Shown here piece after piece: positions 19,063 to 29,380 of a stretch of 64,000 bases of DNA. A model generated the notes under the pieces. That model did no database searches, was not told the DNA's origin, and saw nothing but the letters and a program-made list of their open reading frames with translations. Numbering within the stretch: position 1 is the stretch's first letter; every line of letters begins with the position of its first letter. The position numbers were made by a program, and so were the translations under genes. The stretch is from Centroscyllium fabricii (lineage: Eukaryota), in assembly GCA_051313645.2 (NCBI GenBank), contig JBNRSN020000020.1:22878001-22942000 (forward strand), given 5' to 3'.

Positions 19063-20130
19063 AAGGAAGTTGGCTGTGGTTGTTGGGTCATTCATCTCAA
19101 CCACAAGACATCACTGCAGGAGTTCCTCAGGGCAGTGTCCTAGGCCCAACCATCTTCAGCTGTTTCATCAATGACCTTCCCTCCATCATAAGGTCAGAAG
19201 TGGGGATATTCGCTGATGATTGCACACCGTTCAGCACCATTCGAGACTCATCAGATACTGACGCAGTCAGTGTCCATATGCAGCAAGACCTGGACAACAT
19301 TCAGACTTGGGCTGACAAGTGGCAAGTAACATTCGCACCACACAAGTGCCAGACAATGACCATCTCCAACAAGCGAGACTCTAACCATCTCCCTTTGACA
19401 TTCAATGGCATTATCATCGCTGAATCCCCCACTATCAACATCCTGGGGGGTTACCATTGATCAGAAACTGAACTGGACCAGCCATATAAATACTGTGGCT
19501 ACAAGAGCAGGCCAGAGGCTGGGAATTCTGCGGCGAGTGTCTCACCCCCGACTCCCCAAAGCCTTTCCACCATCGACAAGGCACAAGTCAGGAGTGTGAT
19601 GGAATACTCTCCACTTGCCTGGATGAGTGCAGCTCCAACAAGACTCCAGAAGCTCGACACCATTCAGGAGAAAGCAGGTCGCTTGATTGGTACTCTATCC
19701 ACCACCTTTCAACATTCCCTCCACCACCGGCGCACTGTGGCTGCAGTGTGTACCATCTACAAGAGAGTACCATCTACAAGATGCACTGCAGCAACTCGCC
19801 AAATCTCCTTCAACAGCACCTTCCAAACACGCGACCTCTACCACTTAGAAGGACAAGGGCAGCAGACGCATGGGAACAGCACCACCTACAAGTTCCCCTC
19901 CAAGCACCACACCATCCTGACTTGGAACTGTATTGCCGCTCCTTCACTGTCGCTGGGCCAAAATCCTGGAACTCCCTTCCTAACAACATTGTGGGTGTAC
20001 CTACACCATATGGACTACAGCGGTTCAAGGCGGCGGCTCACCACCATCTTCTCAAGGGCAATTAGGGATGGGCACTAAATGCAGGCCTAGCCAGCCAGCA
20101 ACGCCCACATCACATCAATGGATTAAAAAA
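19063..20130 (+). mobile_element. CR1-like LINE, 5'-truncated, young; near-identical to ~28312-29380
   Basis: RT motifs GVPQGSVLGPTIFSCFINDL and FADD; 3' UTR 'caagggcaattagggatgggcactaaatgcaggcctagccagcc'; (ATT)n tail. Confidence 0.92.
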
Positions 20131-20944: not shown

Positions 20945-23548
20945 GGGCAGCACGGTGGCTAGCACTGTTGCCTTACAGCACTAGAGACCCGGGTTCAAAT
21001 CCAGCCTCGGGTACTATCTGTGTGGAGTTTGCACATTCTCCCTGTGTCTGCGTGGGTTTCCTCCGGGTGCTCCGGTTTCCTCCCACAGTCCAAAGATGTG
21101 CGGGTTAGGTTGATTGGCCAGGATAAATTGACCCTTAGTGTTAGGGGGATTAAATATGTGGGGTTACGGGGATAGGGTGGGATATGTGTCAGTGCAGGCT
21201 CGATAGGGATCGAGGGATATGGGTACAGGGCAGGGACAGGGTGCTGGGTTTGGATGATCAGCCATGATCTCGTTGACAATAGACAATAGACAATTACGGC
21301 ACTGAACAGGCCTTTCGGCCCACAAGTCATGCCGCCCCCTCCCTCCTGCCTCCCTATCTAATACCCTTCCGCCCCCATATAAATGTCCAGTTTTCTCTTG
21401 AACGCCTCCAGGCTGCTCGCCTCCACAATCTGTGCTGGCAGCCTATTCCACTCACTCACGACCCTTTGCGTGAAGAACCCCCCTCTTCCATCTCTTCTGA
21501 ACTTCCCTCCCTGTATTTTATACGAATGTCCTCTCGTGCCCGTCTCCCTCATCCTTGGAAATAGTCTTTGTACGTCCACCTGGTCAATACCCTTTATCAT
21601 CTTGAATACCTCTATCAGGTCTCCCCTGGACCTTCTTCTCTCCAGAGAGAACAGCCCCAGTTCCCTCAGTCTCTCTTCGTACGTCCTCCCCCCCCATCCC
21701 CGGCAGCATCCTCGTAAATCTCCTCTGCACTCTCTCCAGAGTCTCCACATCCTTCTTGTACCTAGGTGCCCAGAACTGAACGCAGTACTCCAAGTGTGGT
21801 CGCACCAGCGCTGTATACAGCCTTATCAACACCTCCCTGTCCCTAAACTCCAGGCCCCTGTTGATAAAGGCCAGTATCCCATAGGCATTCTTTGCCGCCC
21901 TGTCCACCTGAGTGGCCGCCTTCAGTGACCTATGAACATACACCCCCAGATCCCTCTGTTCTTCTGTTTCCTTTAGTACTTTCCCGTTTAGCCTATATTC
22001 CCTCCTTCCGTTCTTGCTGCCAAAGTGCATCACCTCGCACTTCTCAGCATTGAACTCCATCTGCCATCTCTCAGCCCATTCCTGCATTCCTTCAATGTCC
22101 CTCTGTAGTCTCTCCCCCCCTTCTTCCTCATCCACTTCTCCTCCTATTTTGGTATCGTCCGCAAACTTACTGACCCAACCCTCTGCTCCCTCCTCCAAGT
22201 CATTTATGAAGACAGCAAATAGTAGTGGACCCAGCACCGATCCCTGCGGAACCCCGCTGGTGACCGGTCTCCAACTGGAGTAACTTCCATCCACTACTAC
22301 CCTCTGTCTCCTCTCCGCTAGCCAGTTTTCTATCCAATTTGCTATTCTCCCATTTACCCCACACCCCCTTACTTTCCTCATCAGTCTTCCATGAGGAACC
22401 TTATCAAAGGCCTTGCTGAAATCCATATAGATTACATCCACTGCCTTTCCCTCATCCACACTCCTGGTCACTTCCTCGAAAAATTCAATCAGGTTCGTCA
22501 GACACGATTTTCCCTTCACAAATCCGTGCTGGCTGTTCCTGATGAATTTAATCTCCTCTAAGTGCCTGTACACCCTATCCCTCAGGACCCTCTCCATTAT
22601 TTTACCAACCACCGAGGTCAGGCTGATCGGTCTGTAGTTTCCCGGTTCCTCCCTGGACCCTTTCTTGAATAGTGGGACCACATTTGCCTCCCGCCAATCT
22701 CCCGGCACCACCCCTGCTGTTAGTGAGGCATCAAAGATTGAGGCCAAGGGTGCCGCAATTTCTTCTCTTACCTCCCATAGTATCCTCGGATACACCCCGT
22801 CAGGCCCAGGTGATTTATCTACCTTTAGCCGTTCTAGTATGCTTAGCACCTCCTCCCTCTGTATCCTCCCCCCCCCCCCCCCCCCCCCCCCATTTCCCCT
22901 TTCTGATCTACGGCTATCTCCTCTCCTTCCTGGTCCCTTTCCTTGGTGAATACTGATGCAAAGTATTCATTCAAGGTTTCGGCCATTTCTTCCTGTTCCA
23001 TACACATCCTCCCCTCCTCGTTCTTTATTGGCCCTATACTTTCCCTTTTCATTCTCTTACTTCTTACATAAGCATAGAATGCCTTTGGGTTCTCCTTAAC
23101 CTTTCCCGCCAGTGTTTTCTCATGTCCCCTCTTCGCCTTCCTTAGTTCTTTCTTCAATTCTCTCCTTGCCTCTTTATACTTTGCCCTCGTACCTGTGTCT
23201 TCTTTCCTCCTCATACTCCTGTAAGCCTCAGTTTTCTTTTTAACCAGCTGTATTACTTCTTTCGTACACCAGGGTTCCCTCCTCCTTTTCCCTTTACCCC
23301 TTCTACATGGTACATGTTTGTCCATGGCCTCCACTATGCGATCCCTGAACTCTTGCCATCTGACCTGTGGACAACCGTCCTTGGTTTCCTTTTCCCAATC
23401 CCATTTGCTCAAATCTTGCCTAACGCCCTCGTAGTTCCCTTTTCCCCAGCAATATACCCTCCTAGTCCTACTCTCCTCTTCTTTATCCATGTGGCGGAGC
23501 AGGCTCGGAGGGCCGAGTGGCCTACTCCTGCTCCTATCTTCTATGTTT
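20945..23548 (+). mobile_element. HE1-type SINE split by a LINE insertion (segments 20945-21275 and 23492-23548)
   Basis: Stops at 'ccatgatctcgttg' and resumes 'tggcggagcaggctc...ctatcttctatgttt', contiguous in the intact copies. Confidence 0.9.
21276..23491 (-). mobile_element. CR1 LINE, 5'-truncated young copy, ORF2 (reverse transcriptase)
   Basis: 421-aa ORF with KSPGPDG, NYRPISLTS, QHGF, YMDFSKAFDKV, GVPQGSVLGP, KFADDTK; frameshifts at C-homopolymers; (attgtct)n tail. Confidence 0.95.
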
Positions 23549-24878
23549 ACCTGGAGTCAAGTTTAATGTATTGCACTATGCACTATACCACATTGCTTTT
23601 AACTCAAAAGGAATTAGGACACATTCAAATCTTGATCACACTACACAATCTTAAAACATTATTTGCACTATTGGACATCCAACAAGTAGAGAAAATACTC
23701 AATACTTCTGAATGAAATGCAAGTATTCTACATTTCTGCTACACTGTACTTCATGCTATTAGTGAATCACATAAGTACACTCCATTATTTCAGAGCAAAT
23801 CTTTAGCAACTACATGAACAGGGGCAGATACTAAATTTTAACCATCTAGCAATACTGAATTTGCTGCAGCTATTCTATCGCTGCACCCTATTAATGATAC
23901 CATATACAGGCCAAGACAGCCCACATTATCCTCAAGAAACTTGAAACAACTGAAAGGTACTGCCACCACAGTAAACTAAATTCATGCAAGTCACATCTAA
24001 AGATGGAAATATATACCACTACTGCTAGATTTCACGGTGTACTTATTATGCAAGTAGGTCAGTATAACCCCCCCCCCATCAAAGAAATTGATATATTACC
24101 AAGAGCTGCTGTATATAAACACAACATAAATATACCCCAGAAAAAGTTCGGCATCTCAAGTTTAAATTTCGGCATTACAAGTTGCACATCTGGATGGCTC
24201 AATAATCCAAATGGAAATATCCAAATCAAGTTCCTGAATTCTACCTCAAATCTAAGTTTACCTTGCCTCATGGAGAGAGCACTTGTTAAATATAAAGCAA
24301 TCTTGCTAACTCCACTATCCCCAGTACAGGAAAATAGGCAACACCTTCAAGAGGCGACTGGATTAACCAGATACTCAGCACTCAAGCTTTGATAAATTCT
24401 ATCCACCATTTATATAAAATTACAATGCCATTTCAAAAACAGCAAAGCAACAATGCTAAGGAAAACTAATACTGGGACCAGACCTGGCCAGCTGTTCAAT
24501 TTAAGGCTCATAATTTACACTCATTTGCCTCTGCCCATTTAAAAGAAAATTTACATAGCATGTGCAGAATTGGAATCTTGAACAAGGTGATCCTGCAAGG
24601 AGCTAAGTTAGCATGCATGTTGGAATGATAAGATCACTGAAGCAATCCTGGGTTAAATGGTCCTCTACTGATGTCAGCTAGCTTTCTCAGTTTTAAGTCA
24701 GACTGCCATATCTGCACTGAAGACTGTAAAAGCCACTCAAACTGGCAAACTGCAGGGCAGTCTGTGAGCAGCTTCAGAGCAGTACCACACGTTGGAATCC
24801 TGTCTCAGGCATGGAAGCCAATTCAGAAGAAAGCACAACAATGTTACTACTGGCCCAGCTCAAACAACAGATGGGATA

Positions 24879-25396
24879 CAGGTTGTGCACCATTAATCCG
24901 CCACGGGCGGGACCAGGCCCGTGCCGGGAAATGGAAAAAACCGGGAGAACGAGGTTGGACACTGCACATGCGCACCATTCAAAATGGCCGCGCACATGCG
25001 CGCAACATTGGGATTGGTTGGCGCGCGCATGCGCAGATCGGGCCCGGGTCCGCCGTCCCTCTCCATCGCCTTTCGGGTTGCTGCTGCCGCCGAGCCGGAC
25101 TCAGGCTGACAGCTGTTGCCTAGTGACTGTCCACCTCAGTCACGGGGCTCAGCTGTGGAGAAAATAACCGGCGGCCGTATTGAATTATCTGCGCATGCGC
25201 TAACCGTCCGGCGACGCATGCGCAGATCATTCAAAACCCCGGCAGCTGTTTTGAATGATCTGCGCATGCGCAGATCATTCGCTGAAGCCACGATGGCGGC
25301 GGCCATCTTGCGCATGCGCAGTGCAGTCGGGGCAATTTGTGCCGGCAGACTGAAGCTGCCGGCTATTCGGGACACGGATTTTTGGTGCACAACCTG
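24879..25396. mobile_element. Tigger/pogo-like MITE, copy 4
   Basis: TA flanks; TIR CAGGTTGTGCACCA(TT/AA)AATCCG. Confidence 0.9.
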
Positions 25397-26005
25397 TATT
25401 AACTTTGGCCTCGTGTTGGATCCAAGTCCACAGAGAACATAGCTAGGAATTCTACTGCAAGCCCAAGTAAAACAGAATTTATGACCACATTCACCTATGT
25501 CAGTTTTTTGTGCCTTTTAAGAAAACAGCTTTTCTAGGCTCAATTTAATACAACAAAATTATTCATCCTGTGAAGAATGCGAATTAGGTGTTAATCAGAT
25601 CATCATTTGTCTCGTTTCACCTTGCACAAGACATTTATATGTTATGCAGAAATTATAAAGTTAAGGCATGTTTCTGTAAAGTTGATTAAAGTAGTTAGGC
25701 AGAATGCAATCCACAAATATCACAACGTGCATTTTGGATAAGCGAAGAGAAATTAATTTGAGCCAATAACTAGTTCACAGTAAGGCCCTACAATTCATTA
25801 TTTAGAGATCTGAAAATGTCCATAGGGTTTTTGCAGAAGGATTCAATTAACTTCACTACAAATATTAAATCAGTACCCCCGTCAAGCCATGCCAAAACTC
25901 CAGTTGCCACTTACACCAAAGCATCACAACCTAAACGTACCCAATCATGAAAGGCAACATGCATTTTACTGATGTGACAAACAGTATTTGAAAGGATTCC
26001 CATAC

Positions 26006-26017
26006 CTTTTCCTTTTT
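26006..26017 (-). CDS. CSDE1: Candidate CSDE1 12-nt microexon, AAA AAG GAA AAG (KKEK)
   Basis: tttgcttgttcag|AAAAAGGAAAAG|gtatgg; phase 0/0 fits between ...KSKEK and DAEEG...; long pyrimidine tract; TGC near the acceptor; TGCATG ~45 nt downstream. Confidence 0.8.
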
Positions 26018-27709
26018 CTGAACAAGCAAAGATAACACACAAGAAAAGAAAAAGAATAATTTTAATAGAGCCAAAGTAGAAAGACTAGATGGAAAAGAAA
26101 AAAAAGGCACCTTGAGGGCAAGCTTGCAGTTGGTAAAATACAGTCAAGAGATCCAATTCAAATATGCCAATTCAGTGCACAATACACAAAAACAGCATTA
26201 TATCCACAAGATGTTAACCAATGACTATCTATCTAAGATGCTGGCCAAATGAATACCAGCCCATTTATCACATTCAGCACCTCCAGCTTTTGAACATCAA
26301 CTTATTTGCTACAGTGAGCACACAAAATAACTAAACTTGTACAGGAGTCACAACTGATTATAAAGTACCAGCTATGACCATATGGCCAGCTTTTACCTTC
26401 AGCATCAATTTCCTTTGGGGTTTTTTTTTGGGGAGGGGGGGGGGAAAGAGGAAATGAGGAAACTTGCCTCGTATTGGAAAAAGATTCAGCATTCAAACTG
26501 GGTTACGGGAAAAGGACCAAGACTTTTGCTCACTGAATTAATTTACACGGGTTTCAGTGTACAAAATGCATTTGATAAAAGCTAGCCCCCCTCCTTCATG
26601 TCCACAGCATTGCAGAGCACACAGGATCCCTTGAACTTCCTTAAAAACTTGTCAGCTATCTTAAGAACCAGTCTCTGAATTTAATTAAGCCACAAGATCA
26701 AAATCTTTTTTCCAGAAGCTTAACCTTTTTTCCCCCTCCCCTGCATCCAAACAAAATTCCGCTCCATGTCTCCCTCCGCCAAGCCAATCAGTCCAAGGTA
26801 CCCCGAGACAAGCTCCAGTGACGAGAAAATCATTTGGCAGAATGGTACGGAAACAAGGTTTTATGGGGAAAAAGACACTAAAAACTGACACTGATCACTC
26901 GAGCATCAACAGCCCACACTGATGACTCGGGTATTATGCCATGAGCTCCAAGGCATCCCTCACTCCCCTCTCCCATCCCTAACTTCATTCTTCAGAAACA
27001 CACATTTTCTTAGTCATACGGACGAACAGAGAGGTTTGCAATGTTGATTTTCATCTGCACTCAGAACAAGTAAATGCAGGGCAGCGTAATGTCATACCAC
27101 AGTAATGTACTCTTAACTACACCAGGGAGTAGTAGACAGAAGGTTACAACCATGATTATTATATACACTCATTTCCAGTGTGGTGTTGAGCAGAGGCTAG
27201 GAATTTTACCCATTGGGGATAATAATTGTTGGCAATCCCAGAGTATCCCTGTGCATCTCCCAGAGGCTCCTTAAGGCAGTGATAGAGGTCTGCAAGAGGC
27301 CGTGTACACACATTTCAGCTAGGGAATAAGGAGAGGATGCAGAAAGAAAAATGTAAATATAGAGTCAGAAGAGGCGACAAAAAATTGGGAAGCCTGCAAT
27401 CAGTTTATGGGCATCTCCATCACTAAGATTGATACTGTTCAGTCACCTCTGCTGCATTCCCCACCCTCACACTAAGCCAAATCTCTCAATTAGGTTCCCC
27501 CTGCCATAGTCCTGAACCCACACCTTTTGCCAGTTGTTGTATCTATGTACATGGAGGGATTTCTAGATTTATAAAACGCACCAATGCATTTATATTTTAA
27601 AATAAGCAGTACACCTTCGTCTATTAAAGCACTCGACTTTACTGCATACCAGTTTACTCCAGTGATTTCCAATATTCCGATTTTGAAGACCGAACCAAGT
27701 GATCAGAAT

Positions 27710-27776
27710 CATCTGACAAACGGTCATCAACTTGAAACGTTAAACTTCGTTCCTCCCCACAGATGCTGCCGGACAG
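27710..27776 (+). mobile_element. Penelope-like short repeat (degenerate hammerhead) interrupted by a LINE; resumes ~29381-29420
   Basis: CTGACAA-acggtcatcaactt-GAAACGTT...ccacagatgctgccggac | ...atgccgagtgtttccagcatt. Confidence 0.6.
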
Positions 27777-29380
27777 GTCAAGGAACGGCTGAAGACACTG
27801 GATACTGCAAAGGCTATGGGCCCTGACAACATTCCGGCAATAGTACTGAAGACTTGTGCTCCAGAACTAGCTGCGCCCCTAGCCAAGCTGTTCCAGTACA
27901 GCTACAACACTGGCATCTACCCAGCAATGTGGAAAATTGCCCAAGTATGTCCGGTCTACAAAAAGCAAGACAAATCCAACCCAGCCAATTACCGTCCTAT
28001 CAGTCTACTCTCAATCATCAGCAAAGTGATGGAAGGTGTCGTCGACAGTGCTATCAAGCGGCACTTACTCAGCAATAACCTGCTAACTGACGCCCAGTTT
28101 GGGTTCTGCCAGGGCCACTCCGCTCCTGACCTCATTACAGCCTTGGTTCAAACATGGACAAAAGAGCTGAACTCAAGAGGTCAGGTGAGAGTGACTGCCC
28201 TTGACATCAATGCAGCATTTGATCGAGTGTGGCATCAAGGAGCCCTGGCAAAGCTGAAGTCAATGGGAATCAAGGGTAAAACTCTCCATTGGTTGGAATC
28301 ATACCTAGCACAAAGGAAGTTGGCTGTGGTTGTTGGAGGTCATTCATCTCAACCACAGGACATCACTGCAGGAGTTCCTCAGGGCAGTGTCCTAGGCCCA
28401 ACCATCTTCAGCTGTTTCATCAATGACCTTCCCTCCATCATAAGGCCAGACGTGGGGATGTTTGCTGATGATTGCACACCGTTCAGCACCATTCGAGACT
28501 CATCAGATACTGACGCAGTCTGTGTCCATATGCAGCAAGACCTGGACAACATTCAGACTTGGGCTGACAAGTGGCAAGTAACATTCGCACCACACAAGTG
28601 CCAGGCAATGACCATCTCCAACAAGCGAGACTCTAACCATCTCCCCTTGACATTCAATGGCATTATCATCGCTGAATCCCCCACTATCAACATCCTGGGG
28701 GTTACCATTGATCGGAAACTGAACTGGACCAGCCATATAAATACTGTGGCTACAAGAGCAGGCCAGAGGCTGGGAATTCTGCGGCGAGTGTCTCACCTCC
28801 TGACTCCCCAAAGTCTTTCCACCATCTACAAGGCACAAGTCAGGAATGTGATGGAATACTCTCCACTTGCCTGGATGAGTGCAGCTCCAACAACACTCAA
28901 GAAGCTCAACATCATTCAGGATAAAGCAGGCCGCTTGATTGGCACTCCATCCACCACCTTCAACAGGCACTCCATCCACCACCTTCAACATTCACTCCCT
29001 CCACCACTGGCGCACTGTGGCTGCAGTGTGTACCATCTACAGGATGCACTGCAGCAACTCGCCAAAGCTCCTTCAACAGCACCTTCCAAACCCGCGACCT
29101 CTACCACTTAGAAGGAGAAGGGCAGCAGATGCATGGGAACAGCACCACCTACAAGTTCCCCTCCAAGCCATACACCATCCTGACTTGGACCTGTATCGCC
29201 ACTCCTTCACTGTTGCTGGGCCAAAATCCTGGAACTCCCTTCCCAACATTGTGTGCACCTACACCATATGGACTCAAGGCGGCGGCTCACCACCATCTTC
29301 TCAAGGGCAATTAGGGATGGGCACTAAATGCAGGCCTAGCCAGCCAGCGACACCCACATCCCATCAATGGGTAAAAAAAA
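27777..29380 (+). mobile_element. CR1-like LINE, 5'-truncated, young, with an uninterrupted RT region
   Basis: 431-aa ORF (GPDNIP, NYRPISLLS, QFGF, ALDINAAFDRVWH, GVPQGSVLGP, FADD); 25-bp tandem duplication at 28941-28990 shifts the C-terminal frame; poly-A tail. Confidence 0.95.

Follow-up and report, generated by a model that had tools for sequence, protein, structure and literature searches.

An ancient cassette microexon is very likely present in the CSDE1 gene of the shark Centroscyllium fabricii

The host gene and the intron around the candidate exon

A sequence-only reading of a 64,000-nt stretch of Centroscyllium fabricii DNA (the window) had pointed out a 12-nt exon encoding KKEK inside a large intron of a gene assigned to CSDE1, and had proposed that it is enriched in neurons. 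This raises the question of whether so short a sequence is a genuine alternative exon and, if it is, how its inclusion might be controlled and what it would change in the protein.

The assignment of the gene was borne out. On the minus strand, 11 CSDE1 coding exons follow each other in order from 59952 to 3030 and match CSDE1 proteins exon by exon with identities of 85-100%; canonical and non-canonical cold-shock domains (CSDs and ncCSDs) alternate along them. A tree of CSDE1, in which the row for Latimeria was mostly empty, placed the gene among cartilaginous fishes and outside the clade of rays and skates (batoids), its position among sharks not being settled. The intron in question measures 22,170 nt. 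It is preceded by an exon at 36524-36360 (minus strand), which, by comparison with homologues, encodes the end of CSD5, the first strand of ncCSD6 and most of the loop that follows, including an SPxK motif, and which matches shark CSDE1 at 95-98%. The exon behind the intron (14189-14082, minus strand) continues ncCSD6 from the second strand on, again as judged from homologues. The genome contains a single match to the upstream exon, which indicates that CSDE1 is a single-copy gene; a retrocopy that would reveal the junction was rejected on the same count.

The candidate exon itself lies in a single-copy intronic stretch. A 221-nt segment containing it has one match in the 7.2-Gb genome, and contigs from three public runs (one study, probably of DNA to judge by size) cover positions 25375-27500. 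One of them, the X1 contig, spans the microexon stretch with zero differing letters. Contig depth is near-flat and at the single-copy level from about 25410 to 27500. Given this depth and the single match, the description of the locus as locally transposon-free is valid for at least 2 kb. A very high-copy repeat, with a summed contig depth of more than 1 million, occupies approximately 24877-25400, ~600 nt downstream of the microexon. Elsewhere in the intron, two copies of one element lie 9,252 nt apart, at approximately 19181-19378 and 28433-28630 (minus strand), and give identical translated hits, while long stop-free frames at 21584-22966 (minus strand) and 27744-29111 (plus strand) are probably transposon remnants.

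Splice signals and reading frame of the microexon

When read directly from the window, positions 26017-26006 of the minus strand give 12 nt encoding KKEK, with CAG as the acceptor on one side and GTATGG (26005-26000) as the donor on the other. Both junctions are in phase 0, and the exon preserves the frame, carries canonical AG/GT sites and falls in the 3-27 nt range of microexons; the coordinates, sites and frame first reported were all verified. Upstream of it extends a U-rich 3' splice region (26084-26018, minus strand) of 65 AG-free nucleotides plus the acceptor AG, compared with AG-free zones of 17-59 nt at the 10 other CSDE1 acceptors in the window. Within this region a TGC (26028-26026) occupies positions -11 to -9 relative to the microexon. 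On the other side, a TGCATG, the Rbfox consensus, is located at 25963-25958 (minus strand), +43 to +48 after the microexon donor. Both motifs had been noticed earlier and were found again.

A mechanical scan of the intron for in-frame candidates of 3-30 nt between AG and GT returned 29, three of which had a pyrimidine fraction of at least 0.6; the acceptor of the KKEK microexon ranked first with 0.70. The pattern YAG-KK[ED]K-GT occurs a single time in the 64-kb window and was produced by 2 of 2000 block shuffles of the intron.

The earlier reading had also described a second acceptor that would yield a 79-nt frameshifting version. This claim holds in part. A pyrimidine tract with an AG is present upstream (26110-26085, minus strand), the AG ending at 26085, and an exon beginning there would indeed shift the frame and stop early in the next exon. 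This possible cryptic acceptor found no backing among homologues, as the 79-nt version was seen in 0 of 415 proteins, and it was rejected as a used isoform.

The same insert in other vertebrates

The exon junction was parsed in CSDE1 proteins gathered by three homologue searches and three cluster look-ups (621 proteins, of which 610 were parsed and 11 were not). Because two of the homologue queries contained the insert, the sample is biased toward inclusion; its rows are also related to each other. An insert at the identical junction was found in 189 of the 610 parsed vertebrate database proteins, alongside skipping isoforms. It reads KKDK in 124 proteins, KKEK in 44, KRDK in 8, KKER in 7, KKK in 4 and KKET in 2. 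Among cartilaginous fishes, 15 of 76 parsed proteins carry it, representing 5 of 19 named species (Callorhinchus milii, Heptranchias perlo, Mustelus asterias, Scyliorhinus canicula and Rhincodon typus); for the other 14 species, no inclusion isoform was present among the proteins sampled. Ray-finned carriers comprise Polypterus, Erpetoichthys, Lepisosteus, Polyodon, eels, tarpon, arowana, cyprinids, salmonids and percomorphs, and the insert recurs in the coelacanth Latimeria and in the frogs Leptobrachium, Rana, Bufo, Pelobates and Xenopus. In Xenopus laevis, models of the L homeolog (P0250, P0397) have KKK and those of the other homeolog (P0399, P0403) have KKEK.

Pairs with and without the insert exist within one species, as in Mustelus asterias (P0006/P0007, 757/753 aa) and Scyliorhinus canicula (P0017/P0018, 803/799 aa), and likewise in Callorhinchus milii, Polypterus and Xenopus laevis. 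Inclusion and skipping are thus both represented in the RefSeq/UniProt models of orthologues, which are mostly predicted gene models; such models usually rest on RNA alignments. It had been suggested that an orthologous exon might already be catalogued in other vertebrates, and this proved to be so. Annotated isoforms with KKEK or KKDK include those of Mustelus asterias (XP_078098578.1), Scyliorhinus canicula (XP_038675871.1), Callorhinchus milii (XP_007899818.1/V9KAG1), Polypterus senegalus (XP_039605332.1) and Xenopus laevis (XP_041439659.1). They have the same four residues at the same exon junction, again as an option, and nothing substantial distinguishes them from the shark case, as expected of an orthologous exon. 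The shark exon is therefore routine as annotation: it is an ordinary microexon of a well-known class, already contained in the RefSeq gene models of relatives. No published account of the 12-nt CSDE1 exon was found in the literature, as judged by titles or the beginnings of abstracts.

The splice signals of an in-frame exon, together with its match to an optional insert that is found from chimaera to frogs, make an ancient cassette microexon very likely, and we take the conservation to be the decisive evidence. Positions 26017-26006 almost certainly constitute a real alternative exon.

Apparent loss and other inserts at the junction

None of the 67 amniote proteins sampled (human among them) carries the insert, nor do any of 16 proteins from 3 salamander species or of 27 from batoids. 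Amniotes were reached with a frog query that itself contains KKEK, so that an amniote inclusion isoform should have ranked higher. The cluster look-ups covered 15 listed members each of clusters of 526, 362 and 177, so the amniote result is an absence from the annotation sample, not a genomic one. According to the available text of a long-read study of human and mouse, only exons 3 and 6 of CSDE1 are alternative, in non-neural cells (PMC12530126). Judged from these proteins, the microexon appears to have been lost in amniotes, which is only a mild novelty. The usual description of conserved neural microexons is one of retention from fish to humans.

Bony fish and the coelacanth have a second microexon of 5-6 residues at the same junction, which is included independently: it occurs alone, together with the first, or is absent. 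Unlike theirs, the shark intron has no counterpart of it. BLOSUM scans for ten inserts (the second microexon of bony fish and inserts of whale shark, skate, frog and chimaera) gave no convincing AG/GT-flanked match in the intron, with best flanked scores of at most 9, and a second microexon was rejected for the shark. At this junction, skates carry an insert of 31 residues, the whale shark a further 7 residues and Pelobates 16 aa; these lineage-specific inserts, the second microexon included, were observed in proteins P0159, P0166, P0073, P0059, P0135, P0016 and P0238. The apparent amniote loss and the tandem cassette of bony fish are the only less ordinary points of this exon.

Place of the insert in the protein

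The catshark inclusion isoform P0017 was modelled with AlphaFold2 from a 52-sequence alignment (mean pLDDT 63, pTM 0.35, part of CSD5 poorly modelled). The insert occupies residues 454-457 of this model, within a stretch of low confidence (442-458) that separates strands E429-435 and E462-468. The same kind of long loop follows the first strand in the two earlier non-canonical domains, and sequence alignment matches the part behind the insert to ncCSD2. For Drosophila Unr, the available text describes the beta1-beta2 loop as a flexible hallmark of non-canonical CSDs, with weak density in ncCSD6, and as a possible protein-interaction platform; isolated ncCSD6 was without RNA-induced shifts (PMC7383231). 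The insert had been assigned to an inter-domain loop. This has to be corrected: in the P0017 model and by comparison with Unr it lies between the first two strands of ncCSD6, hence inside the domain and not between domains. PDB sequence and fold searches found structures of Unr/CSDE1, with no residue-level view of the ncCSD6 loop among them. The microexon provides a natural with/without pair for the proposed interaction role of the beta1-beta2 loop.

The SPxK motif precedes the insert position in 610 of 610 parsed loops, the parsing being anchored on SPxK itself; it may be a kinase-type site. A known case in which splicing alters a non-canonical cold-shock domain of this protein, that of mammalian exon 6 (isoforms 1 and 2), differs in kind, since according to the text available that exon is of normal size and its skipping deletes part of ncCSD2, whereas the shark exon would add four residues to the ncCSD6 loop (PMC12530126).

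Tissue control of inclusion

With 12 nt the exon is probably below the length that ordinary exon definition requires, and by default 36360 is expected to be joined to 14189. Rbfox bound to the downstream UGCAUG would then promote inclusion, with SRRM3/4 assisting from the UGC within the U-rich acceptor region. In the available parts of the respective reports, SRRM3/4 microexons are characterised by a UGC and an extended acceptor region (10.1101/2024.09.17.613571, PMC12871342), and alternative micro-exons that brain, muscle and heart include by a downstream TGCATG, at which Rbfox acts (PMC4317164). At the KKEK exon the UGC is located between the pyrimidine tract and the AG, the acceptor region is extended, and a UGCAUG is present in the proximal downstream intron. 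A TGC at -20 to -4 was also seen at 19 of 52 pyrimidine-rich decoy acceptors in the intron and at 2 of the 10 other acceptors of the gene; given the decoys, the upstream UGC by itself counts for little. More weight attaches to the downstream UGCAUG, since a TGCATG within 100 nt downstream was found at only 3.3% of intron positions.

Together, the length, the frame, the UGC, the longest AG-free zone and the TGCATG speak for neural control and fit published descriptions, as far as these are given in the accessible text (10.1101/2024.09.17.613571, PMC12871342, PMC4317164). The exon resembles the SRRM3/4-dependent (eMIC) class in its size of 3-27 nt, its frame, a UGC near the AG, an extended pyrimidine-rich acceptor, deep conservation and a surface loop as its site, and it resembles the Rbfox-enhanced micro-exons of brain, muscle and heart in the TGCATG at +43 of the proximal downstream intron (PMC4317164, available part). 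It differs from the eMIC class in that the CSDE1 orthologue is missing from a zebrafish neural microexon table and was not seen in amniote models. Overall, inclusion is probably neuron-enriched, with or without muscle.

The strongest competing explanation is that the microexon is real and mainly a striated-muscle or heart target of Rbfox, the UGC being incidental. The commonness of UGC in the background agrees with this, as does the fact that Rbfox also promotes micro-exons in muscle and heart (PMC4317164, available part). Rainbow trout csde1 is named among the top muscle-specific splicing events (PMC8321248), but the text available from that study leaves the exon unspecified, and bony fish have other csde1 alternative exons. 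The exon is also absent from the zebrafish data: the available list, whose 708 neural exons (246 of them microexons) were selected in a way that retains exons shared by nerve and muscle, contains no csde1 microexon (PMC12626424). Its sole csde1 row, DreEX0024480 at chr8:22514524-22514812, is a 289-nt exon with a neural dPSI of +43.9, a srrm3/4 dPSI of -8.5 and no human orthologue; it barely responds to srrm3/4 loss. With a length that is not a multiple of three, this row may stand for both fish microexons scored as a single exon together with their intervening intron, or for an unrelated exon. Danio had no protein in our homologue sample, in which other cyprinids carry the insert. No occurrence of csde1 was found in the supplements of PMC12626420, PMC9303857, PMC7821500 and PMC13281805, whose tables may use gene IDs or be truncated, and the main text of a study of tissue splicing that includes elephant shark (10.64898/2026.09.05.749416) makes no mention of it. 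The long AG-free, U-rich acceptor region in turn suits neural microexons. We consider a mainly muscle or heart Rbfox target with an incidental UGC unlikely, and muscle-dominant inclusion as such about equally so.

Likely consequence of inclusion

On balance we favour an ancient cassette microexon that most tissues likely skip and that is included chiefly in neurons, with striated muscle as a probable second site. Inclusion would add four charged residues, with a net charge of +2, to the flexible beta1-beta2 loop of ncCSD6, just past the conserved SPxK. This would likely tune partner binding or electrostatic RNA contacts and leave the fold unchanged; an action through the loop surface seems probable.

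Less likely than a muscle target is modest inclusion across a wide range of tissues, with weak tissue control and nearly neutral consequences for the protein. The flexible loop tolerates unrelated inserts (5-6 aa in bony fish, 31 aa in skates, 7 aa in the whale shark), and the four residues were not seen in the amniotes, salamanders and batoids sampled; their length and sequence have nevertheless been kept from chimaera to frogs, and an Rbfox consensus site stands at the position of an enhancer.

It is doubtful, too, whether inclusion acts as a localisation switch through the basic motif K-[KR]-x-[KR] beside SPxK, an explanation compatible with either tissue pattern. This motif corresponds to the minimal classical pattern for nuclear import and was found in 187 of 189 loops carrying the insert and in 0 of 421 lacking it, but these rows are related rather than independent and any lysine-rich insert would create it. 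Acidic residues inside and after the motif are unfavourable, and the KKET of Heptranchias lacks the motif. The human isoforms tested, which are without the insert, were mainly cytoplasmic in the available account (PMC12530126). Finally, a chance intronic sequence or dead remnant, conceivable in that the exon is known in Centroscyllium fabricii from genomic sequence alone, is very improbable given the exact KKEK, the intact splice sites, the single copy, the 2 hits in 2000 shuffles and the conserved inserts of five other cartilaginous fishes.

Returning to the cassette microexon, a broader scenario is offered tentatively. The exon may be an ancestral jawed-vertebrate switch in the ncCSD6 loop of CSDE1, regulated in neurons and muscle, which was kept from chimaeras to frogs, was expanded to a two-microexon cassette in bony fish, disappeared in amniotes (and perhaps independently in salamanders and rays), and controls partners or nuclear access via a basic patch beside SPxK. 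CSDE1 is an autism-linked RNA-binding protein encoded by a neurodevelopmental gene. If the scenario is true, the absence of the exon from amniote gene models would be a clear-cut example of how an old splicing switch was lost from such a gene.

Other features of the CSDE1 span

Further exons of the gene may be alternative. The in-frame exon at 38097-37957 (minus strand) encodes most of the canonical CSD5, and the Mustelus isoform P0006 lacks it; N-terminal offsets that are shorter in other models of sharks suggest the same skip, which would delete an RNA-binding domain. The ncCSD2 exon at 59952-59851 (minus strand) is missing from isoforms P0016 and P0002 and probably corresponds to the alternative exon 6 of mammals. 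Downstream of the exon at 3143-3030, still in the CSDE1 span, positions 1-2200 of the window are GC-rich (57%) and hold several long overlapping open frames.
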